Assembly (NCBI GenBank): GCA_964567555.1
Contig: CAZMNA010000001.1
Span: 24,911 to 88,910 of the forward strand
DNA length: 64,000 nt
Origin: an uncultured Candidatus Saccharibacteria bacterium
GTDB taxonomy: Bacteria > Patescibacteriota > Saccharimonadia > Saccharimonadales > UBA10212
Direction: 5' to 3'
In this document: piece by piece, positions 35,523 to 59,372 of the stretch
How the letters are laid out: the number at the start of each line of letters is the position of its first letter
Numbering within the stretch: the first letter of the stretch is position 1
Position numbers and translations under genes: made by a program
The notes under the pieces: generated by a model
Seen by the model: only the letters and a program-made list of their open reading frames with translations
Told to the model about the DNA's origin: nothing
The model's database searches: none

Positions 35523-37049
35523 ATGCCGAATACAAATGCTCAGATTGGCCATCTTATTGCTCAGATAAGACAAGAACGCGGCCTTACCCAAGCTGAATTT
35601 GCCCGCCGGCTGGCCACCAGCCAATCCGCTGTTAACCGCATTGAGCGCGGTAGGCAAAACTTGACTCTAGATACGCTTGGCCACATTAGTCAGGTCTTAA
35701 ATAAGCAAATTATTTCGGTTGGCGGTGGCGCAGTAAATCTGCGTATTGAAGGCGGCCGGCCGCTTTCCGGTGAAATTGAAGTCAAGACTTCCAAGAACGC
35801 CGCCGTGGCGATTTTATGCGCTAGTTTGCTCAACAAAGGTACGACCCGCCTGCAAAAAGTTGCCCGCATAGAAGAGGTCAACCGCATCATTGAAGTCCTT
35901 ACCTCCATGGGCGTAAGCGTCCGCTGGCTGCCCGGGAGCGATCTAGAGATTAAACCGCCCGCCAAACTAGACATTGGCAATCTTAATAAAGAATCAGCCC
36001 GCAAAACCCGTACCGTCATCATGCTAGCCGGACCGCTGATGCATGAATTTGGTAGTTTTCATATTCCTTACGCTGGCGGCTGCGAACTTGGCAAACGTAC
36101 GGTTCTGCCGCACATCTACGCGCTGGAGAATTTTGGCACCAACATTGAAGCCCACAGCGGTGCATACCAAATTAGCGTCCACAAAAAACAGCCCGCCCAG
36201 CCGGTGGTTTTATACGAAGCCAGCGATACAGCCACCGAAAATGCGCTGATGGCTGCTGCGCGCTTTGAGGGCGAAACCGTTATAAAAATGGCCAGCGCCA
36301 ACTACATGGTGCAGGACCTTTGCTTTTATTTGACTAAGCTCGGCGTCAAAATTGACGGCATTGGTACCCAGACTCTGCGCGTACGTGGTGTCAAAAATAT
36401 TAAAAAGAACGTCACTTACAGCCCGAGTGAAGACCCGGTGGAGGCGATGACTTTTATCTCTGCCGCCGTAGCCACAAACTCGTCCATTACTGTTAGGCGC
36501 GTGCCGGTTGATTTCATGGAGCTGGAACTACTCAAACTAGAAAAGATGGGTCTAAAATTTACTCTATCTAAAACCTACAAAGCCGATAACGGCGAGGCTG
36601 ATCTAGCCGATATGAGGATCCAAAAACATAACGGCTCGCTAATCGCGCCTGAAGAAAAATTGCATCCTTTAGCGGGCGGCGTAGGCATCAATATTGATAA
36701 CCTGCCCTACTTTATTCCGATTGCCGCCGTCGCCCGCGGCCGCACCCTTATCCACGACTGGGTTTATGAAGACCGCGCCTTAATGTACACCGAGATGAAA
36801 AAGATTGGCGTTGATATTGAGCTGGCCGATCCGCACCGCGTTTTTATTAACGGCCCGACCCACTGGCGCGAGGCTGAAATTGTGGCGCCATCCGGTATCC
36901 GCCCAGCCGTGATTTTACTGATTGGCATGCTGGCCGCTGACGGCGTGTCCATGTTGCGCAATATTTATACAATCAATCGCGGTTACGAAGATTTGGCCGA
37001 ACGTCTAAACCAGCTTGGCGCCAAAATTACCGTCGTGCACGAAGCCTAA
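35523..37049 (+). CDS. murA: UDP-N-acetylglucosamine 1-carboxyvinyltransferase with N-terminal XRE-type HTH domain (fusion)
   Basis: Residues about 1-65, IRQERGLTQAEFARRLATSQSAVNRIERG, form an HTH. The MurA body follows: LRIEGGRPLSGEIEVKTSKNAAVAIL and the catalytic-Cys loop YAGGCELGKRTV. Confidence 0.85.
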   Translation: MPNTNAQIGHLIAQIRQERGLTQAEFARRLATSQSAVNRIERGRQNLTLDTLGHISQVLNKQIISVGGGAVNLRIEGGRPLSGEIEVKTSKNAAVAILCASLLNKGTTRLQKVARIEEVNRIIEVLTSMGVSVRWLPGSDLEIKPPAKLDIGNLNKESARKTRTVIMLAGPLMHEFGSFHIPYAGGCELGKRTVLPHIYALENFGTNIEAHSGAYQISVHKKQPAQPVVLYEASDTATENALMAAARFEGETVIKMASANYMVQDLCFYLTKLGVKIDGIGTQTLRVRGVKNIKKNVTYSPSEDPVEAMTFISAAVATNSSITVRRVPVDFMELELLKLEKMGLKFTLSKTYKADNGEADLADMRIQKHNGSLIAPEEKLHPLAGGVGINIDNLPYFIPIAAVARGRTLIHDWVYEDRALMYTEMKKIGVDIELADPHRVFINGPTHWREAEIVAPSGIRPAVILLIGMLAADGVSMLRNIYTINRGYEDLAERLNQLGAKITVVHEA

Positions 37050-37396
37050 ATTCCGCTGGCAGACTTACCCGGCTTGACCTTTACGGCTGTGCCGTAAGCT
37101 ACTACCTCGTTCATGACGTTAGCTATATCGCCACTATCAAAGCGCATCATTAGTACTGCATTTGCGCCTTTGGCAGCTGCTTCTGTCCGCAATCTTTCTA
37201 GTGCTTGCTCGCGTGTATCGGCAAGAAGGCGCGTATAGCCCTTGGCTTCTCCCCCAAAGATAGTCCTAAAAGATGCACCTATATTAGAAAAAATGTTGCG
37301 GCTACGCACTATCAGCCCAAACACTTCGCCGTAAACTTCTATCACTTGGTAGCCCGGCATATCATTAGTTGTAACGACCGTTACATTTTGGTCCAT
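37046..37396 (-). CDS. YbjQ/UPF0145 family protein
   Basis: VTTNDMPGYQVIEVYGEVFG..VRSRNIFSNIGASFRTIFGGE is the family pattern. Confidence 0.8.
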   Translation of the reverse strand: MDQNVTVVTTNDMPGYQVIEVYGEVFGLIVRSRNIFSNIGASFRTIFGGEAKGYTRLLADTREQALERLRTEAAAKGANAVLMMRFDSGDIANVMNEVVAYGTAVKVKPGKSASGI

Positions 37397-37441
37397 AATT
37401 CCTCCATTTAAATTTCATTATACTCTGCCAGCGCAGCTAAC

Positions 37442-38032
37442 TTAGTTTTCATTGAAGCGATGCCAGTTAGATTTCAACAGACGGCTTAAGGTTACCAGCA
37501 AATAGATACTTACTGCTGCTACAGCGATTGCGCCGGCCAGATAGCCAATCCCCTGCCTTAGAGCCGAAGCGTTAAGTGCGTGGCCCAGCAGTCTGGATGC
37601 CCAGGGCAAAAGCACCTGGAAGAATAAATATATAAACCCTATCCAGCCCAGCGCCCAACCAGCAGTTAACAAAGTAAAGCTTTTTGCTCCGCCGTTGCTA
37701 GTAGATTGGGCGGGCCGAACATAGCCAGCTAGTTTGGCTTCTTTCCTTGCAGAAGAAAAAGCTTCTTGGATCCAGATGGCCAAAATATAACTGGCGCCGC
37801 CAATTAACATCCAAAACAGCATCAGCACTGGTGCGCCGTACTTGTCCAAAAAATTAAAGATTGGCTTACCGACATTTGAATAGTTTGTGTTGGCCGCAAG
37901 CTGCTGGCCCAAAATGTGAGAGCTAGAAAACTGCCAGACATTGTGCAGGTTAAGCGCAAAAAGCAGTGCCGCAGCCAAGACTATATAAAAAAGCGTGGTG
38001 ACTGTCTTTTGGCTAAAACTACTTTTTTGCAT
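37442..38032 (-). CDS. hypothetical integral membrane protein
   Basis: Four or five predicted hydrophobic helices. No motif recognised. Confidence 0.6.
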   Translation of the reverse strand: MQKSSFSQKTVTTLFYIVLAAALLFALNLHNVWQFSSSHILGQQLAANTNYSNVGKPIFNFLDKYGAPVLMLFWMLIGGASYILAIWIQEAFSSARKEAKLAGYVRPAQSTSNGGAKSFTLLTAGWALGWIGFIYLFFQVLLPWASRLLGHALNASALRQGIGYLAGAIAVAAVSIYLLVTLSRLLKSNWHRFNEN

Positions 38033-42563: not shown

Positions 42564-42818
42564 TTAGTGACGAATAGCACTGAGCAGGACGATTAGTACG
42601 GCCAGACCAACAATGGCATACTCCAGCACCATGTCCTTAGATAAATAGTTTTTTCGGCGGTTTAAATAAGTGTTGATTACTACCCCGACCGCCAATATCA
42701 GCGACGCAATTAGGATAGACTTACTGGGCTTGAACTCGGCAATAGCCACCAAGCTGACAATTATGGTTAGGGCGTAAATACCGTAAAACAGCTTTATGAA
42801 ATGCCGCGACCGCCTCAT
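42564..42818 (-). CDS. small membrane protein
   Basis: Three hydrophobic helices. Its start overlaps the stop of the upstream CAP-domain gene. Confidence 0.5.
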   Translation of the reverse strand: MRRSRHFIKLFYGIYALTIIVSLVAIAEFKPSKSILIASLILAVGVVINTYLNRRKNYLSKDMVLEYAIVGLAVLIVLLSAIRH

Positions 42819-43822
42819 TTGGTTACCCCGAAGCCGCTAGTGATAGTAACCAGAGCGACTACTAGCAAGAGACTGGCTTGCATCAGCGGGTGGGCTCTAA
42901 GCCAAATTTGATGCCGGCCGCGTTTCTTCAGCCGCCAGACGACTGTGTGTGCCAATAAACTAGCTAGCATTAGCGAGCTGGCCAGAAAGATTGTGGCTCG
43001 CTGACCCCAGTTAAGTGCACTAATATTGCCTACCATGGTAGCCAAAGATAACCTATCGCCAAGGACTTGGCCAGAAGCTTGACTACCGGCAGCTAGCTGC
43101 TTGGCAGCAGTATTTGATGATTCAACAGCCGGCTTCCTGGTCGGCTGGCTAGTTGGCTTGGTGGGACTAGCGGGCTGATGTGTGGTTGTTGCCGGCGAGG
43201 TCGGGCTTTGGTTTGTGCCGGTGATGCCGGGAGCAGCCTTAACTGGCTGTTTGGCGGCAGTTGCAGGGGCGGCATACATCGCTACCACTAGAGTAGTCTG
43301 CGATCCAAGCAAACTGCCATTCATAACCGCAAAGCCAACGTCTTTATAGGCCGGGTTCAACATATTATCACGGTGTTCGCTACTATCCATCCAGCCGGTG
43401 ATGACACCAGATGATGTCAGGAAATCTTTAGCCAGGTTTTCAGCTGCCGCGGTATAGCTATATCCGGCATTAGTAATAAAAGACCAAGGCTCAACGCCCG
43501 TCGGTGATACGTGGGCCCAGTAGTCATTAGCAAACATATCTTTAGCCTTGTTCTCGGCCGCGGTTGACAGGCGGGAGTTTAAAGACAGAGCCGGCACGCC
43601 GGCTGATTGTCGCTCGACGTTCGTCAAGCTATATATGTTATAGGCGCTAATGTCCGTTGCATAACCCAGTACTTGCGGCTTGTGCGCGGAGGATAGGTTA
43701 TATGCAAGCGGCATTAGAGCCACAACCACCAAAAAAATAGCCAAACCGAGCGGTCTAAGAGCGTAAGGGCGATATTTGTTTTTTTTATGCGGCCAAAGCC
43801 ATTTTTTGATCTTTTTGATCAT
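42815..43822 (-). CDS. CAP/SCP (YkwD-like) domain membrane-associated protein
   Basis: NVERQSAGVPALSLNSRLSTAAENKAKDM..YWAHVSP..ENLAKDF..GWMDSSEHRDNML is the CAP-domain pattern. Pro/Thr-rich linker and C-terminal TMs. Confidence 0.8.
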   Translation of the reverse strand: MIKKIKKWLWPHKKNKYRPYALRPLGLAIFLVVVALMPLAYNLSSAHKPQVLGYATDISAYNIYSLTNVERQSAGVPALSLNSRLSTAAENKAKDMFANDYWAHVSPTGVEPWSFITNAGYSYTAAAENLAKDFLTSSGVITGWMDSSEHRDNMLNPAYKDVGFAVMNGSLLGSQTTLVVAMYAAPATAAKQPVKAAPGITGTNQSPTSPATTTHQPASPTKPTSQPTRKPAVESSNTAAKQLAAGSQASGQVLGDRLSLATMVGNISALNWGQRATIFLASSLMLASLLAHTVVWRLKKRGRHQIWLRAHPLMQASLLLVVALVTITSGFGVTK

Positions 43823-44826: not shown

Positions 44827-44903
44827 GTGGCTGTAGCTCAGCTGGTTAGAGCGTCAGTTTGTGGTACTGAAAGTCGTGGGTTCAAATCCCATCAGCCACC
44901 CCA
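44827..44903 (+). tRNA. tRNA-His (anticodon GUG) with encoded G-1
   Basis: gGTGGCTGTAGCTCAGCTGGTTAGAGCGTCAGTTTGTGGTACTGAAAGTCGTGGGTTCAAATCCCATCAGCCACCCCA. The extra 5' G pairs with C73. Confidence 0.9.
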
Positions 44904-44913
44904 GAATTAAATC

Positions 44914-45450
44914 ATGCCAAATTTATTAAACCCATTCTCTAAACCTATTGGCCGCGGCGGCCAGCGCCCCAGAACCGAAGCGGAATATAACCGCTACATA
45001 TTGCAAACTATCCAGCCGGGCCTGGCTGGTCTTATGGATGGTTCTGTCTCTACCCTTGCGCCAATATTTGCTGTAGCCTTTGCCACCCACAAACCGCACT
45101 TTGCTTTTGTGACTGGCGTTGCCGCAGCGGTGGGTGCCGGTATATCCATGGCCTTTGCCGAAGCATTAAGTGACACTGGTGAACTAACCGGCCGCGGCCG
45201 GCCACTGCGCCGCGGCATCATCATTGGCGCCATGACTTTCTTGGGTGGTATTTTTCATACCCTGCCCTTTTTGTTTGGCAACATCCACCACGCTCTAATT
45301 GTGGCTTATTTTATAGTGGGCGTTGAGCTCATGACCATTGCCTACATCCGCTATAAATACTTTGCCATGCGTTTTTGGCTTAGCATTTTGCAAGTTATCG
45401 TCGGCGGCGGGCTGGTCTTTGCCGCCGGCATCTTGATAGGTACCTCCTAG
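44914..45450 (+). CDS. VIT1/CCC1-family membrane protein (short form)
   Basis: GLMDGSVSTLAPIFAVAFAT and GAGISMAFAEALSD resemble VIT-family motifs. Three or four TMs. Confidence 0.6.
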   Translation: MPNLLNPFSKPIGRGGQRPRTEAEYNRYILQTIQPGLAGLMDGSVSTLAPIFAVAFATHKPHFAFVTGVAAAVGAGISMAFAEALSDTGELTGRGRPLRRGIIIGAMTFLGGIFHTLPFLFGNIHHALIVAYFIVGVELMTIAYIRYKYFAMRFWLSILQVIVGGGLVFAAGILIGTS

Positions 45451-45520
45451 TTATCCACAAACGAGCAGCTTAAGAGTTGCAAGCTGAGCGTTTTTGCTTA
45501 TGCTTAAGGTATAGATTTAA
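45451..45520 (+). promoter_or_regulatory. conserved upstream module of leader-family cassette 1 (TTATCCACA ... TTGCAA ... TTTTTGCTTATGCTTAAGGTATAGATTTAA)
   Basis: The same ordered blocks recur at 46279-46350 and 48775-48845. Confidence 0.5.
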
Positions 45521-45541
45521 AAAATTAGAATCAGAATAAAA

Positions 45542-46243
45542 ATGAAAAAGTTTAATAAAAATATGTTTGGTTACGCTCACCATGTGCTACTTGGTGTTTT
45601 GGTGGTAGCGGTTATAGTCTTAGCCGGTGTTAAAGTCTTGACCGGCACACGTGCCCAAACACCGGCTGTTAGCGCGAGCATTGGTACTGCAGCCTCATTT
45701 ACTGCGACGCCGGACCAGCTAAAAGCTCTTGCTGTCAGCAACAAAACGACTTTGTCTTCAGCAGAAGCTGGCCGACAGGTCTGCCCGGAAGTATCGGGAG
45801 AGAAACAGCTCAAATCGCTAAATAAACAGGTCCGCAATGCAATCAACGACTTCCGCAAGAATAAAAGTCTCCCGACGCTCAGCCGTTCCCTCAAGCTCAA
45901 CGCGTCGGCCCGGCAGCACTCAGAGGAAATGGACGCAAAAGCGTACTTCGACCATCCCTGCTATGACGGAACGGTGTTTTGGAAGCGGATCCAGCGCTAC
46001 TACTCCTCCACGAACTATTCGTACTGGACTGTTGGCGAGAATCTCGTGTGGTCGACGGGTAGCTTAAGCGCGGCCGACGCCCTGAAGCTGTGGATTGGAA
46101 GTCCTGAGCACCTGCGAAACCTGAAAGACCCGAACTGGCGTGACCTTGGTGTCTCTGCGGTACAAGCGACCAATGCGGGAGGCGTCTACGGCAACGGCAC
46201 CGTCACGATCATCACTACCGACTTCGGCGCGCGGCACAACTAG
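45542..46243 (+). CDS. leader-family protein 1: conserved N-terminal signal-anchor plus CAP/SCP domain
   Basis: MKKFNKNMFGYAHHVLLGVLVVAVIVLAGVKVLTG leader. CAP motifs NDFRKNKSLPTLS..HSEEM..YFDH..GENL..SPEHLRNL. The 3' two-thirds is visibly more GC-rich. Confidence 0.8.
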   Translation: MKKFNKNMFGYAHHVLLGVLVVAVIVLAGVKVLTGTRAQTPAVSASIGTAASFTATPDQLKALAVSNKTTLSSAEAGRQVCPEVSGEKQLKSLNKQVRNAINDFRKNKSLPTLSRSLKLNASARQHSEEMDAKAYFDHPCYDGTVFWKRIQRYYSSTNYSYWTVGENLVWSTGSLSAADALKLWIGSPEHLRNLKDPNWRDLGVSAVQATNAGGVYGNGTVTIITTDFGARHN

Positions 46244-46278
46244 TCTTTTTAGTCGGCACCTTACATTGGCAATTCAAA

Positions 46279-46350
46279 TTATCCACAAGTGAGCAATTTA
46301 GTTGTTGCAATTACCTCATTTTTGCTTATGCTTTAAGCATAGGTCTATAA
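46279..46350 (+). promoter_or_regulatory. conserved upstream module of leader-family cassette 2
   Basis: TTATCCACA (46279-46287), GTTGCAA, TTTTTGCTTATGCTTTAAGCATAGGTCTATAA. Confidence 0.5.
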
Positions 46351-46371
46351 GAACAAAAACAGGATTAATAA

Positions 46372-47226
46372 ATGAAAAGTTTTAGTAAAAATATGTTCGG
46401 GTTCGCGCATCATGCGCTGCTTGGTGTAGTTGTGGTAGCAGTGATTGCCCTTGCGGGTGTTAGAGTTCTAACTGCCACACACGCCGCCAGCGGAACAACT
46501 GGTGTATTGGGCTATTTTCAGACAAATGATAATCAGGCATGGCCAAACTCTCAACACTACGCAACACTTGACGTTGCCGTACCATATGCTCGACATGCTA
46601 AAAAGGTTGTATGGTATCGAGATAAAGTCAGTGATGCCACGCGTATCGCAACTACTTTCACGCATACTAAGGCCACCGTAAACAATGGCTACATGGAGCA
46701 TTTCAAATACATATGGAAGATATCTTATGCTAGTGCGAATTTATACCGCTGGGTGGCAGTGATATATCCCTCCTCGGGCAATCCACTCCCTGCTGTGGCT
46801 ACTGACGAGCATGGCAAGACGATAAATTACCTTGATACGCTTGTTACAGGGAATGGGGGTTTTTGGGATAGCAAATTTATTCATCCGGCAAATAATGCTG
46901 TTTGGAAGGCGTGCGACCAAAGCAACTTCCTTCGGGTAGAAATCCGTGCTCAAGACGTTGATGTCCAAAATATTAAGGCGGTACAGTTCATTAACAAATC
47001 TGACACCGATGCTATACAGTACACGGTCACCAGCCCTGCATATGTCCACGACGGCCCTTCGTTTCATAAATATGTTGGCTATGACTACTACCCGGTGGGT
47101 GCCGGATGTTTGAAAAAGGGTCCTTACCACTGGATAGCTAGGGTAATAGGTACCAACGGGGGCGTCAATTTAGCTTTAGATCACAGTAATGCTGGTGTTT
47201 ACTACCTGGACTTAACTGCGAAATGA
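46372..47226 (+). CDS. leader-family protein 2 (secreted/anchored, unknown function)
   Basis: MKSFSKNMFGFAHHALLGVVVVAVIALAGVRVLT leader. Shares the YRWVAVIYPSSGN / YLDTLV block with members 3 and 4. Confidence 0.75.
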   Translation: MKSFSKNMFGFAHHALLGVVVVAVIALAGVRVLTATHAASGTTGVLGYFQTNDNQAWPNSQHYATLDVAVPYARHAKKVVWYRDKVSDATRIATTFTHTKATVNNGYMEHFKYIWKISYASANLYRWVAVIYPSSGNPLPAVATDEHGKTINYLDTLVTGNGGFWDSKFIHPANNAVWKACDQSNFLRVEIRAQDVDVQNIKAVQFINKSDTDAIQYTVTSPAYVHDGPSFHKYVGYDYYPVGAGCLKKGPYHWIARVIGTNGGVNLALDHSNAGVYYLDLTAK

Positions 47227-47274
47227 ATTAAAGGTAACTAAAATGAAAAGCTTTACGAAAACGAAGGGATAAAA

Positions 47275-48036
47275 ATGAAAAAACTAAACAAAAATCTAGC
47301 CGGCTTTGCCCATCACGCTCTTTTAGGCGTAGTAGTTATAGCTGTAATTGCCCTAGCGGGCGTTAAAGTTCTGACCGGAATTCATGCGGCAAACGTCCCT
47401 AGTGTCGGCTCTTTTGCGTTCGCAAAGGAACTGTCATATGTGGAACCCAAAAATAGCAATCAGTCAGCATGGATTCAGCTTGCTGTACAAATTTCCAACA
47501 CTATAAAAGTTAAAAAAGTAGAGTTTTATTCATCTAATCTAAACAAAAGTTCTTTGGTCGCTGCCGTTTATCAACCGACTAAAAACGTAAATAACGATAG
47601 GGCGAATAATTATTTCGTCTATTTTTGGGATGCTTACCGTGCCCGCGCTGGCGGTTACCATTGGCTTGCAGAAATTTACCCCGCTCATGGCAGTAAGTAT
47701 TTGGCTGTCAACAACAAACTCAAACCGTACTTAGATATACTCAACATCGGACATGGTCCAGTGCATGGTAGTTATGCAGGCACTGCTTGTGGCGGTAACT
47801 ACACAGCAATCAATGTTGACGACTATTACAAAACCAGGCAGATAGATTTGTACTACCTCGTAAAAGGAAAAGACTTTGTTAAATATCACAGCTCTACTCA
47901 GGCACACTCTGTAAACAATAAAAACAATACGGCGGTCTATTGTGCTCGATACCCATCGGGGAATGTTAACTACGATGACGGCCCATATTACGTGGTTGTA
48001 ACTAATTCTGGGTTGACCAGGCTGGTACCATATTAA
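47275..48036 (+). CDS. leader-family protein 3
   Basis: MKKLNKNLAGFAHHALLGVVVIAVIALAGVKVLTGIHA leader. YHWLAEIYPAHGSKYLAVNNKLKPYLDIL block. Preceded by a 9-codon leader fragment (47243-47272, MKSFTKTKG*). Confidence 0.75.
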   Translation: MKKLNKNLAGFAHHALLGVVVIAVIALAGVKVLTGIHAANVPSVGSFAFAKELSYVEPKNSNQSAWIQLAVQISNTIKVKKVEFYSSNLNKSSLVAAVYQPTKNVNNDRANNYFVYFWDAYRARAGGYHWLAEIYPAHGSKYLAVNNKLKPYLDILNIGHGPVHGSYAGTACGGNYTAINVDDYYKTRQIDLYYLVKGKDFVKYHSSTQAHSVNNKNNTAVYCARYPSGNVNYDDGPYYVVVTNSGLTRLVPY

Positions 48037-48106
48037 CCTTTTCTATCAAACCTCTGCGAACAAGAAGATATAAAAAAACTTCAAGAAAAATATGTACGGT
48101 TAGAAA

Positions 48107-48742
48107 TTAAGTAGCAAGCTTTAGAACTAAAAGTGTTGCTAACGGCACGGTTAAGTTGTCCAGCCCAAGAGGGGTGATGTTTTCCACTGCCGCTAGTGCC
48201 GGCGGTAAGAAAATTAAAAGTAATCCATAGTTATGGCTGCCGGTAGATAGTAATCCTATCCCTAAAATTAAGACGGAAGCCAGCCAAAAGGCCATTGTCC
48301 CAATTACTGTCTTGGTTTGGCCAAATGCCTTGTAGCCCCAATTCTTTCCAAAGCGAGTGCCAAATACCGCCGCAAAGCCGTCCGCGAGTGACGTCTGCAA
48401 AATAGCAAGAGAAAAGAAAACCTTATCGTGAGTCAAAAAAGCGCAAGTTATAACGGCTAAAGCCAAGCAAATCCCGCCTAAGCTTTTTTTTCTAAGGTTG
48501 GCTCCGTAATGCAGTACCCTATCAACATAATTGTTAGTACCGAGCACAACCAACATCAGCACACCCATGATTTGGATTTGGTGCCAAGAAAGCAGCCACG
48601 GCCAAGTGGCAAAAAAGGTACCAGCCAACACGTGGACGAACTTACGCTGGTACTCACCCCGCAGTACATTTGCCCGCCAAAGCAGTTCCGCAAAAACCAA
48701 AATCCCCAGTACGCCGCAAAAACAAGCAATAAACGCAAGCAT
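48107..48742 (-). CDS. CTP-dependent cytidylyltransferase/polyprenol-kinase family membrane protein (CdsA/dolichol-kinase-like)
   Basis: RKFVHVLAG and LADGFAAVFGTRFGK motifs. Multi-TM. Start trimmed to MLAFIAC because the ORF-track extension covers cassette 4's conserved upstream module. Confidence 0.6.
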   Translation of the reverse strand: MLAFIACFCGVLGILVFAELLWRANVLRGEYQRKFVHVLAGTFFATWPWLLSWHQIQIMGVLMLVVLGTNNYVDRVLHYGANLRKKSLGGICLALAVITCAFLTHDKVFFSLAILQTSLADGFAAVFGTRFGKNWGYKAFGQTKTVIGTMAFWLASVLILGIGLLSTGSHNYGLLLIFLPPALAAVENITPLGLDNLTVPLATLLVLKLAT

Positions 48743-48774
48743 TACATTCAATTGTATATTAATGTCTCTTTTGG

Positions 48775-48845
48775 TTATCCACAGTGCGCTTAATTTGACC
48801 TTGTAATCTGTCAGGTTTTGCTTATGCTTAAGGTATAGATTTAAT
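48775..48845 (+). promoter_or_regulatory. conserved upstream module of leader-family cassette 4
   Basis: TTATCCACA (48775-48783), TTGTAA, GTTTTGCTTATGCTTAAGGTATAGATTTAA. Confidence 0.5.
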
Positions 48846-48856
48846 AGAAAGTTAAA

Positions 48857-49678
48857 ATGCAAAAACTATCAAAAAAACTCGGCGGCTTTGCCCATCACGC
48901 TCTTTTAGGTGTAGTAGTTATAGCTGTAATTGCCCTAGCGGGCGTAAAAGTTTTGACTGGTATTCATGCTGCCAGTCCGCCAAATAGTGTCGGCTATTTC
49001 GCCCCCGATGAAAATACTGCTTTTGCTAACAAAAATAATGTGGAACAACTTGCCGTAAGGGTCGATAAGAGCATTAAAGTCAACAAGGTCGAGTGGTATC
49101 TAAACAACACGAAGCCTAGTTCTCTTCAAGCAACTACAGATAGAGGTACCACAATAAGCAACGTTAAAAGTTATGCATATAACTGGAAAGTCACGAATCT
49201 GGGTGCCGGTTCTTACCATTGGCTAGCAAAAATTTACACCCCTACTGGTAATAGCTTGGCACTTAACAACCAGGGTAATCGGCATTTGGATGCTTTAGTA
49301 ATTGGAGCGGGTGGCTGGGCCGGTAAATTTGCACAAAAACAGCACGAAGATGTCTCCAATAATAAACCAACAGCACCAATAGACGTTGTAACTAACGAGT
49401 GTAATTACCCCAAACCGCCCGTAGTGGAATGGTATATCGGCAACACCAAGGTAGCGTCTTCAAGCCATCCCATTTCGGATGTGGTACCTATTGTCAATAT
49501 AGATTGCGGTTTGTTTAACAATCAGCAACACCATATATTGACTTTCCGGTACAATTTTCCGACGACTGGTATAACTGGCCCTGTCACGTTTTATGCAAAA
49601 GTCATTGACTCAAATGGTAAAGCTAGGCTCGCTACCAACAATCAAGGCGATTACTACTTAACAATACACATACATTAA
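48857..49678 (+). CDS. leader-family protein 4
   Basis: MQKLSKKLGGFAHHALLGVVVIAVIALAGVKVLTGIHA leader (nucleotide-identical stretch with member 3). YHWLAKIYTPTGNSLALNNQGNRHLDALV block. Confidence 0.75.
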   Translation: MQKLSKKLGGFAHHALLGVVVIAVIALAGVKVLTGIHAASPPNSVGYFAPDENTAFANKNNVEQLAVRVDKSIKVNKVEWYLNNTKPSSLQATTDRGTTISNVKSYAYNWKVTNLGAGSYHWLAKIYTPTGNSLALNNQGNRHLDALVIGAGGWAGKFAQKQHEDVSNNKPTAPIDVVTNECNYPKPPVVEWYIGNTKVASSSHPISDVVPIVNIDCGLFNNQQHHILTFRYNFPTTGITGPVTFYAKVIDSNGKARLATNNQGDYYLTIHIH

Positions 49679-49776
49679 CAATGGTAAAAAAGCATATTGT
49701 CTGAACGGCACACATGTTTGGTTCCAGTGTTCAAAGAGCTTTACGATAAAGAAATAGATAAAAGAAGCAAAAAAGG

Positions 49777-50231
49777 ATGAAAAACTTCAAGAAAAATATG
49801 TTCGGTGCGGAACGGGTATCTCTAAAAAAATTATAGATGGGAAGAAAGTAATCGTGTTGGGGCCAGCCACCCAGAAGAATACTCCAACAGCAAAGACTAA
49901 TCCCACCAACCCGTCCTCTCTAAGAAACTTTATAGCACATACAGGCCAACATTACTGGACATGCTATGTTGTCAGAGCCCCCGAAGGAGATAATGGTGTG
50001 TATTTATATAACGTATCTCTTAAATACAATACCGACGTTAGTGTATATGTTCTTACAGGAGTTAAGACAAAAGTTCCAAAAACCTCAAAGTTTCATCAAC
50101 ATTGTACAAACACGAATTCACAGGAAGCTCCTAAATCTTATCTAAAGGCGTCCTTCTTTGCAGTTGAAAATTTGGATCATAAACATAACATTTACGTCAA
50201 AGGCATGACTATTTATAGGAAGGCCAACTAG
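49777..50231 (+). pseudogene. degenerate fifth leader-family member (leader fragment plus detached body)
   Basis: 49777-49836 encodes MKNFKKNMFGAERVSLKKL* behind an AAGGA RBS. The separate ORF 49854-50231 carries a family-like block GQHYWTCYVVRAPEG. Confidence 0.45.
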
Positions 50232-50288
50232 TGCAACCCAGTAGCTAAGCCATGAAAAAAGTACCACTGATTGCTGGTACGTTTTTCA

Positions 50289-50365
50289 TGGTCGGGGTGA
50301 GCGGATTTGAACCGCTGGCCTCACCGTCCCGAACGGTGCGCGCTACCGGGCTGCGCCACACCCCG
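50289..50365 (-). tRNA. tRNA-Pro (anticodon CGG)
   Basis: Reverse complement CGGGGTGTGGCGCAGCCCGGTAGCGCGCACCGTTCGGGACGGTGAGGCCAGCGGTTCAAATCCGCTCACCCCGACCA. Confidence 0.9.
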
Positions 50366-58895: not shown

Positions 58896-59372
58896 ATGAA
58901 GCAAAAAAATAGGCTGGGGTTTTCTACGATTGAACTCCTGATTATTTTTGCGGTGGTCAGTTTGTTGGTTGCCTTTATTGCCACACATTACGCCTCGGTG
59001 CGGCAAAAATCACGGGACGACAGCCGCAGGACCAACATCTCTAATTTGCAGTTTGCCGCCGAGAGTTATTTTGCCCAAAGCGGCGACTACCCAACTTTGG
59101 CACAATTTAACAGTGCGCTCTTTCGGAATAAGAATATGCCCGCTCTGCCCAACGGTTCCTGGCAGGACCCTTCCTGGCCAACCAAAAAAAGTGAATGCAA
59201 GGTTGCCAGCGTGGCAGTTTTAGTTGATTTGGAGACCCCGGCGGTTGGTTGCTATGGTTACGTACCCACTCCAGCCGGCTGCGATAATAAAAAAACCATC
59301 TGTACCGGTTATGAGTTCTCCGCCCACTTAGAGGGTGGTGGTTATTACGTCAAAAATTCAAGCGGCGCTTGA
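58896..59372 (+). CDS. type IV pilin-like protein (prepilin N-terminal methylation motif)
   Basis: KNRLGFSTIELLIIFAVVSLLVAFIA is a G/FxxxE prepilin motif plus a hydrophobic helix. Confidence 0.75.
   Translation: MKQKNRLGFSTIELLIIFAVVSLLVAFIATHYASVRQKSRDDSRRTNISNLQFAAESYFAQSGDYPTLAQFNSALFRNKNMPALPNGSWQDPSWPTKKSECKVASVAVLVDLETPAVGCYGYVPTPAGCDNKKTICTGYEFSAHLEGGGYYVKNSSGA

Follow-up and report, generated by a model that had tools for sequence, protein, structure and literature searches.

A conserved N-terminal leader shared by an array of divergent, putatively exported proteins in a Saccharimonadales genome

Surface proteins of staphylococci and streptococci reportedly carry YSIRK-G/S signal peptides. 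The extended signal peptide region (ESPR) is a feature of autotransporters and two-partner secretion (TPS) proteins of diderm Proteobacteria. In Mycoplasma, the vsp and vlp genes encode lipoproteins with repetitive bodies, which are switched by a site-specific recombinase or by a poly-A tract in the promoter. The sugar-binding proteins of the Sulfolobus bindosome bear class III signal peptides on non-pilin cargo (PMC3047682). Here, we describe an array of four intact genes and one degenerate gene (members 1 to 5) at 45.4-50.3 kb of a 64 kb stretch of DNA (contig CAZMNA010000001.1, positions 24,911 to 88,910; hereafter the window) from an uncultured Candidatus Saccharibacteria bacterium. The intact genes begin with a common 38-residue leader, of which the degenerate gene retains a remnant. 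We estimate at roughly 60% the probability of the following interpretation: the leader is a lineage-specific extended export signal that marks a subset of the secretome, and the array is a clade-specific islet of duplicated, diverged and decayed exoprotein genes with a shared leader and promoter.

The first 38 residues of members 1 to 4 align without gaps and contain 22 invariant columns. A preliminary description of this DNA had given these genes a common start of the form MK(K/S)...; the leader is confirmed in all four, although member 4 begins MQKL. A hidden Markov model (HMM) of the leader and a six-frame tblastn search located full copies in the window in exactly members 1 to 4; beyond these, they matched only a remnant of 10 residues (49777-49806). 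We scored a profile built from the four leaders exhaustively against 1.84 billion representative proteins, of which 35 clusters passed E<1e-3 and 16 passed E<1e-10. All 35 matches are N-terminal, starting in the first ~15 residues and lying within residues ~1-50. The consensus is MKxFxKNMFGFAHHALLGVVVxAVIAxAGV[KR]VLTG[ST]HA followed by [ALQD][TS]P, and a more distant variant reads ..LNQxGFxH..P..VVAVIA..GV[RK]VLT.SHA. Genome and metagenome contig collections scanned with a 42-residue leader alignment gave 103 and 21 pattern hits, none of which tblastn upheld, perhaps owing to the shortness and hydrophobicity of the query; we base no conclusion on this negative result. Three positions are invariant (G10, 34/34; G29, 36/36; A38, 35/35), and N7 (30/31), H13 (33/35), H37 (32/35) and a basic residue at position 31 (33/36) are nearly so. 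Conservation this strict, which includes two invariant glycines and three histidines that hardly vary, suggests the existence of an export or sorting partner.

The anatomy of the leader resembles that of a signal peptide of the general secretory (Sec) pathway. The n-region is positively charged, with 3-4 lysines in residues 2-7 of the window copies. Residues 15-30 are uniformly A, L, V, I or G, and the h-region, at 16-19 residues, is among the longer ones, a trait of Gram-positive signal peptides. In organisms with a Gram-positive-like envelope, signal peptides are usually long. The residue at -1 is alanine in 35/35 sequences and that at -3 is S, T, I or G. Proline is never found at +1, where A, L, D, Q or S occurs, and is found at +3 in 18 of 30. 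Conservation ends abruptly at A38 and gives way to a Ser/Thr/Pro-rich linker. The n/h/c anatomy and the alanine at -1 fit cleavage by signal peptidase I after residue 38, and A38 of the [ST]HA site is judged from these sequence features to be the most likely cleavage position. In our proposal, the leader would be a 38-residue Sec-type signal peptide with a Lys-rich n-region, an invariant G-F-x-H-H at the n/h boundary, and a hydrophobic core of ~16-19 residues that ends G-V-[KR]-V-L-T and leads into [ST]-H-A. The array proteins would accordingly be predicted substrates of Sec export.

The domains that follow the leader are diverse. Pfam searches on 36 leader-bearing members returned CAP, PD40 propeller, FN3, GH5, GH12, GH16, neprosin, cohesin, BNR and inhibitor I36 domains, which are extracytoplasmic types only. 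In 8 pairs of orthologs or paralogs, identity is 63-89% in the leader, compared with 25-50% in the mature part. The leader is thus better conserved than its cargo, the reverse of the usual signal-peptide pattern. The other exported proteins of the window have short, ordinary and mutually dissimilar signal peptides unrelated to the leader. Since the leader is rare, N-terminal, attached to unrelated exported domains, conserved beyond its cargo and unlike the other signal peptides of the window, we interpret it as a lineage-specific export signal. The same observations, including the count of 35 clusters in 1.84e9 proteins, support the proposal in the preliminary description of a dedicated N-terminal sorting signal, and we infer a sorting role from them.

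We compared the fraction of identical codons at identical amino acids between leader and body in six gene pairs. Five of the six pairs show no excess in the leader (0.17-0.46 in the leader against 0.33-0.48 in the body). Because synonymous sites are at background, selection acts on the leader peptide and not on the DNA. Purifying selection on the peptide would keep the leader in place, which implies that the leader does more than target proteins to Sec; it might, for instance, act in sorting, in timing or in dedicated processing.

Among described systems, the leader appears functionally most like the motif-bearing extended signal peptides (YSIRK and ESPR), while being a member of neither group. 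With the YSIRK-G/S peptides it shares the form of a long Gram-positive-type signal peptide with a conserved Gly-containing motif at the n/h boundary. Both occur on a subset of the otherwise unrelated exported proteins of one lineage, and the conservation of each implies a role, beyond Sec targeting, in where or when export takes place. However, the leader motif is KNxxGFAHH rather than YSIRKxxxGxxS, conservation runs through the entire h- and c-regions, and the members in the window lack an LPXTG anchor. Like the ESPR, the leader is a conserved N-terminal extension that yields an unusually long signal peptide restricted to one class of exported proteins. Its sequence is unrelated to the ESPR, its cargo is diverse where that of the ESPR is of one architectural class, and its host is probably a single-membrane organism. 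The leader matches no profile of the YSIRK, ESPR or KxYKxGKxW families (Pfam at E<=10 for the leader; Pfam and NCBIfam for the full proteins). More generally, queries with the leader alone drew no Pfam match at E<=10, and none of the full member proteins matched a signal-peptide model in Pfam or in NCBIfam (the latter at E<=0.1). Literature searches turned up no account of this leader.

The array and its flanks contain the following features, given in window coordinates (ORF, open reading frame; UTR, untranslated region).
44827-44903, plus strand: tRNA-His(gtg) (ARAGORN, Rfam); backbone, outside the array.
44914-45450, plus strand: VIT1/MbfA-like iron exporter gene (Pfam VIT1 2.6e-13, NCBIfam MbfA 3e-66); backbone, left edge of the array.
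45451-45541, plus strand: predicted promoter module 1, with Box A TTATCCACA at 45451-45459, TTGCAA at 45477-45482 and TATGCT at 45499-45504, then the 5' UTR.
45542-46243, plus strand: member 1, leader 45542-45655, then a CAP/SCP domain.
46279-46371, plus strand: predicted promoter module 2, with Box A at 46279-46287, TTGCAA at 46305-46310 and TATGCT at 46327-46332.
46372-47226, plus strand: member 2, leader 46372-46485, then two immunoglobulin-like (Ig-like; Big_7-type) repeats.
47243-47272, plus strand: spacer S with mini-ORF MKSFTKTKG*, which resembles the start of a leader, directly 5' of member 3, with no promoter module.
47275-48036, plus strand: member 3, leader 47275-47388, then Ig-like repeats.
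48074-48100, plus strand: leader stub A (..KNFKKNMYG*), without ATG, abutting the 3' end of the minus-strand membrane gene.
48107-48742, minus strand: backbone membrane-protein gene of 211 amino acids, with a weak CTP_transf_1 match.
48775-48856, plus strand: predicted promoter module 3, with Box A at 48775-48783, TTGTAA at 48801-48806 and TATGCT at 48823-48828.
48857-49678, plus strand: member 4, leader 48857-48970, then Ig-like repeats (Big_7, 5.3e-6).
49777-50231, plus strand: member 5 remnant, P0008-like, with a leader stub at 49777-49806 (its ORF ends at 49836) and a GTG-initiated ORF at 49854-50231 in another frame.
50261-50280, plus strand: terminator-like hairpin 3' of member 5 (consensus scan only).
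50289-50365, minus strand: tRNA-Pro(cgg) (ARAGORN, Rfam); backbone, right edge of the array.

The four intact genes lie where the preliminary description placed them, as the ORF listing bears out. It had also given tRNA-His and tRNA-Pro as the bounds of the array; both flank the region, although the VIT1/MbfA gene intervenes after tRNA-His. The CAP domain it assigned to member 1 is recovered by Pfam (2.7e-14), and leader-bearing CAP proteins (P0011 and P0013) are found as counterparts at the same locus in two other genomes, L006 and L008. A second CAP/YkwD-family gene (42815-43822, minus strand; Pfam CAP 1.4e-20) lies 1.7 kb upstream of the array and has an unrelated N-terminus without the GFAHH leader; thus, one CAP domain type would be exported by two different signals in one genome.

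Members 2 to 4 are paralogs, with 50% and 39% identity to member 3 (E 9e-30 and 4e-21). The block Y(H/R)W(L/V)A.IY...G / LD.L noted in the three proteins is borne out by their alignment. Each contains two Ig-like repeats, detected as Big_7 in member 4, and the internal repeat is visible in the alignment. Searches with the mature part found no homologs other than the copies of this genome, and PDB sequence searches with the profile of members 2 to 4 and with member 1 returned nothing significant. AlphaFold2 modeling of member 4 from a 4-sequence alignment gave a mean predicted local distance difference test (pLDDT) score of 47.5, with an N-terminal helix followed by all-beta content. Member 5 is indeed degenerate, as had been noted. 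Its codons 1-10 match those of P0008 at 10/10 positions, and its C-terminal ~130 codons, in another frame, show 28% identity to P0008 (E=1e-14), the hydrophobic core and cleavage region having been deleted. Member 5 is what is left of a P0008-like gene for a small beta-rich protein, as a pseudogene or in truncated form, and leader-bearing P0008-like counterparts occur at the same locus in other species. Its HYWTCYVV segment, previously taken for a degenerate YHWLA block, belongs to this separate P0008-like family. Since the array consists of one paralog family and two unrelated families, the earlier picture of swapped bodies is inaccurate for this window; members 2 to 4 have diverged from one another.

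The preliminary description had proposed a conserved module upstream of the genes. It is present before members 1, 2 and 4 and absent before members 3 and 5. We aligned eight units (three from the window, two from L006, and those of L008, L014 and L016) and added a ninth from L020; L014 and L020 are loci of one and the same metagenome-assembled genome (MAG). In these nine units, from the window and 5 other genomes, the module consists of Box A, a -35-like block and a -10-like block at fixed spacing, with unconserved spacers between them. Box A is exactly TTATCCACA in 7/9 units, the other two having TTATCTACA and TTATCCGGA. The -35-like element, TTGnAA (TTGCTC in L020), lies 16-17 nt downstream of Box A; the -10-like element, TATGCT (improved to TATACT in one unit), follows after exactly 16 nt, and the ATG lies 35-50 nt beyond that. 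The composite pattern occurs in the window at the three array sites only, where 0.065 were expected, and TTATCCACA occurs 4 times against 0.43 expected. An Rfam search of the region returned tRNAs and the transfer-messenger RNA (tmRNA) only, so that the module corresponds to no known RNA element. We infer that the module is a sigma-70-type promoter with an upstream factor-binding site; this call rests on conservation across genomes, and the hexamers were assigned from the 8-9 conserved units. The sigma-70-like promoter TTGnAA-N16-TATGCT would drive each transcription unit (member 1; members 2 and 3; member 4 with the remnant of member 5), and TTATCCACA, 17 nt upstream of the -35 element, would probably be the binding site of a regulator. 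As these units share one predicted promoter, the array genes would form a small co-regulated set.

By sequence, the 9-mer of Box A equals the DnaA-box consensus. Its exact copies keep a constant spacing to the -35 element that follows; however, there is one box per promoter and it is not at an origin. An RNA hairpin, TTATGC-N5-GCATAG, was considered in the module and rejected: its 5' arm overlaps the proposed -10 element and would thus be missing from the transcript, while the sequence of the 3' arm is lost in the L014 copy. A DNA operator at this position is possible. The fourth copy of TTATCCACA in the window, at 22290, lies between inverted-repeat arms in a gene-free stretch of ~520 nt (21940-22460) beside tRNA-Glu. 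One arm (22198-22221) is 92% complementary to 22395-22418 over 24 nt, and the same left arm is 87% complementary to 22323-22345; the stretch has no Rfam match.

In place of the module, member 3, member 5 and stub A (48074) are preceded by a short spacer (CTTTACGAAAACGAAG..ATAAAA), which suggests two multi-gene transcripts, one of members 2 and 3 and the other of members 4 and 5. For members 2 and 3 a single transcript is probable because no promoter module precedes member 3. The spacer at 47227-47274, including the mini-ORF, is ~89% identical to the spacer before P0015 in L019 (90-150), which exceeds the identity of the coding sequences. The DNA is conserved but the mini-ORF peptide is not (MKSFTKTKG* in the window, MKKL* in L019), which suggests an element that acts at the nucleotide level. 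We propose a role as a ribosome-binding region, and the spacer is probably an old, functional intercistronic element. The sequence at 47243-47272 had been listed as a leader stub; it is part of this spacer and represents old sequence rather than fresh debris.

Several observations weigh against the interpretation of the leader as an extended export signal under a common promoter. The hydrophobic stretch F11-L33, 23 residues long, would suffice as a membrane anchor. An invariant glycine and then phenylalanine after a short basic segment is the pattern of a prepilin-peptidase site. The conserved basic residue at -8 and the histidine at -2 are atypical of signal peptidase I substrates. For the promoter, the hexamers score 8/12 against the consensus, and a generic promoter scan of the window did not flag the module. 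In one alternative, the leader would be of class III (prepilin-like): a PilD-type peptidase would cut after Gly10, and the helix starting at Phe11 would anchor the cargo or load it onto type IV filament machinery. The leader shares with the class III peptides of the Sulfolobus bindosome a short basic segment up to an invariant glycine, then phenylalanine and a hydrophobic helix of ~20 residues, on enzymes and binding proteins; there is precedent for such peptides on non-pilin cargo (PMC3047682). The 9 residues before G10 are Lys-rich, position 11 is F in 29, Y in 3, L in 1 and S in 1, a genuine pilin-like protein with G|FSTIELL is encoded in the window, and conservation along the whole helix fits one that is retained and contacts a partner. 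However, the Glu at +5 is absent, with A, V, L, Y or W instead. No pilin N-terminal or N-methylation model was matched (Pfam E<=10; NCBIfam E<=0.1), the cargo consists of enzymes and binding domains with no pilin folds, and the signal peptidase I-like site conserved at the end of the helix, [ST]HA|x-x-P, would be left without a role. We consider a class III leader unlikely, and hold the same opinion of an uncleaved N-terminal signal anchor, by which type II membrane proteins would display their domains at the surface and the helix would oligomerize or dock in the membrane. The 23-residue segment with basic residues N-terminal to it would be suited to this, AlphaFold models residues 7-36 as a single helix, with low confidence, and the helix is conserved throughout, beyond the motifs at its ends. 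Against an anchor, the invariant A38, the small residue at -3, the exclusion of proline from +1 and the Ser/Thr/Pro-rich linker form a classic signal peptidase I context, and it is at A38 that conservation breaks off.

A further, tentative possibility extends the export-signal interpretation. The leader could be an address tag for a dedicated export or sorting route confined to a small Saccharimonadales clade, its cargo of host-interaction and polymer-degrading exoproteins forming a regulon under a factor that binds the perfect DnaA-box 9-mer at about -60. Such a route might employ a specialized signal peptidase or a membrane partner that reads the face G10-F-x-H-H ... G29-V-[KR]-V-L ... H37-A38; alternatively, the leader might undergo dual processing at G10|F11 and A38. 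If the factor were DnaA, the exoprotein output of an obligate epibiont would be coupled to its replication status.

The organismal context was examined through other genes of the window. Its RecA is 84-87% identical to those of the nearest named relatives, which are Candidatus Saccharimonadales / Saccharibacteria MAGs, and the window sequence is also found on JGI and ENA metagenome contigs. A Gram-positive-like, piliated envelope is attributed to the Saccharibacteria phylum. The window encodes both an LPXTG-anchored protein and a type IV pilin-like protein, and the LPXTG protein and sortase contexts fit a Gram-positive-like envelope. The pilin/pseudopilin-like gene (58896-59372) has the canonical prepilin motif given above; the end of its helix, ATHYAS, resembles the ATHAAS of the array leader, which may be coincidence.

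To place the array in its genomic setting, we compared it with loci from other genomes (L006, L008, L010, L011, L012, L014, L016, L019 and L020). The backbone order is tRNA-Gly, tRNA-Arg, tRNA-His, VIT1, the 211-amino-acid membrane gene on the opposite strand, tRNA-Pro(cgg), a 264-amino-acid membrane protein and tRNA-Pro(tgg). The order tRNA-Gly/Arg/His-VIT1 is common to L006, L011 and L012, and L008, L010 and L012 agree with the window in where tRNA-Pro(cgg) lies with respect to the minus-strand gene. L012, from a more distant relative, has an identical backbone and no leader genes, and there VIT1 and the membrane gene overlap tail to tail. Closer relatives have other sets of leader genes at the site. 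VIT1 lies directly upstream of leader genes in L006 (P0017, CAP, P0004 and P0008, then the membrane gene), in L008 (PD40 and CAP, then the membrane gene and tRNA-Pro) and in L020 (a PD40 gene). Orthologs of the 211-amino-acid gene border the array in L006 and L008; in L012, the ortholog directly adjoins VIT1. A contig scan with the backbone membrane protein gave no match; its search patterns were narrow, and the result carries no implication of absence from GTDB. In the window, the longest ORF of this gene begins at TTG 48862, and its additional stretch (48743-48862) would cross promoter module 3. A start at ATG 48742, as JGI calls it, is likely and leaves a divergent promoter region of 114 nt.

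Leader genes with the same promoter are not confined to this site: they also follow murA in L016 and occur elsewhere in L014. The murA site is a second location for such units; there, in L016 (1-1921), a leader gene with the full promoter module lies between murA and an oppositely oriented gene, and at the counterpart of this site in the window (35523-38032), murA and ybjQ abut without a leader gene. Members 4 and 5, beyond the membrane gene, are seen in the window only, and stub A sits at the position of the intact P0008 gene of L006. This requires a minimum of two events, a duplication or translocation and a gene-sized deletion. The 27-nt direct repeats that flank 48101-49779 might suggest a transposon-like insertion. 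This was rejected as the simple reading, since L006, L008 and L012 show that the membrane gene between the repeats is ancestral there. In our model, the array would have been built by duplication, divergence, decay, and gene gain and loss at a tolerant site between backbone genes.

The preliminary description had suggested contingency or antigenic-variation-like shuffling among the genes. A repeat finder run on the array returned a 119-nt leader family, a 90-nt upstream family before members 1, 2 and 4, and a 27-nt stub pair. The stub at 48074-48100 stands as described, 26/27 of its bases being equal to 49780-49806, where 0 matches are expected by chance. The leader DNA of members 3 and 4 had been called almost identical. 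Its identity is clearly elevated, although that wording overstates a value of 89.7% over 116 nt (47272-47387 in member 3), in a tract that starts 3 nt before the ATG. In the codon comparison, the same-codon fraction of this pair is 0.79 for the leader and 0.48 for the body (Fisher p=0.005), and a single local event of gene conversion or patch replacement best explains the tract of ~116 nt. Some recombination has occurred, on evolutionary timescales, as seen in this tract, the duplicated 27-nt stub, the gene-sized deletion and the turnover of gene content between species.

Could the array be a locus of contingency or antigenic variation, in which cassettes alike at their 5' ends frequently recombine or undergo gene conversion and thereby switch or shuffle the surface proteins that are expressed? 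As in Mycoplasma vsp/vlp, the genes are clustered, with a highly conserved 5' UTR or promoter, a common signal peptide and differing bodies; the conversion-like tract, the duplicated stub, the decay of member 5 and the variation in gene content between species are also in keeping with this. Yet synonymous identity in the leader is at background in five of six pairs, and contigs from five samples are 100% identical to the window over the parts that they cover (46275-49036), a comparison of limited power since it rests on assemblies, not reads. The array has no lipobox, all copies are on one strand with no inverted copies or inverted repeats except a tRNA match, and it contains no switch-type tandem or homopolymer tracts, Tandem Repeats Finder (TRF) returning a single, trivial repeat of 18 nt. 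Pfam and NCBIfam searches of the neighboring ORFs revealed no gene for a recombinase or transposase in or beside the array. The bodies are unrelated enzyme and binding domains with stable leader-bearing counterparts in other species, and one supposed stub is the old spacer kept between species. Given the identity across five samples and the absence of a recombinase, invertible element or repeat tract, antigenic variation is not supported, and we regard a contingency locus as very improbable. Mobile cassettes of Box A, promoter, leader and body, with TTATCCACA as an integron-like recombination site at their boundary, seem to us more improbable still. Homology between units always begins at Box A, units occupy varied backbone sites (after VIT1, after murA and elsewhere), and at both sites examined they lie between convergent genes. 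However, no integrase or recombinase was seen near any locus, no matching site is present at the 3' ends of the units, and the constant 17 nt between Box A and the -35 element better fit a transcription-factor site.

Saccharibacteria live as obligate epibionts and have very small genomes; their interface with the host bacterium consists of the proteins that they export. The leader is easily recognized and evolves more slowly than its cargo. It offers a simple sequence handle on one putatively co-regulated part of the secretome, made up of CAP proteins, Ig-like binders, propellers and glycoside hydrolases, in a clade in which such proteins mostly lack annotation. The conserved predicted promoter with its DnaA-box-like element provides a testable regulatory hypothesis. 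The locus also shows a streamlined genome gaining new exoprotein genes, and letting them decay, at a single tolerant site.

At the murA site of the window, which has no leader gene, the MurA ORF (35523-37049) appears to have an N-terminal helix-turn-helix (HTH)/antitoxin-like extension. NCBIfam assigns residues 7-62 to a Y4mF-family antitoxin (4e-11) and residues 72-505 to MurA. The extension may reflect a fusion; alternatively, the ORF caller may have joined a small upstream gene to murA.

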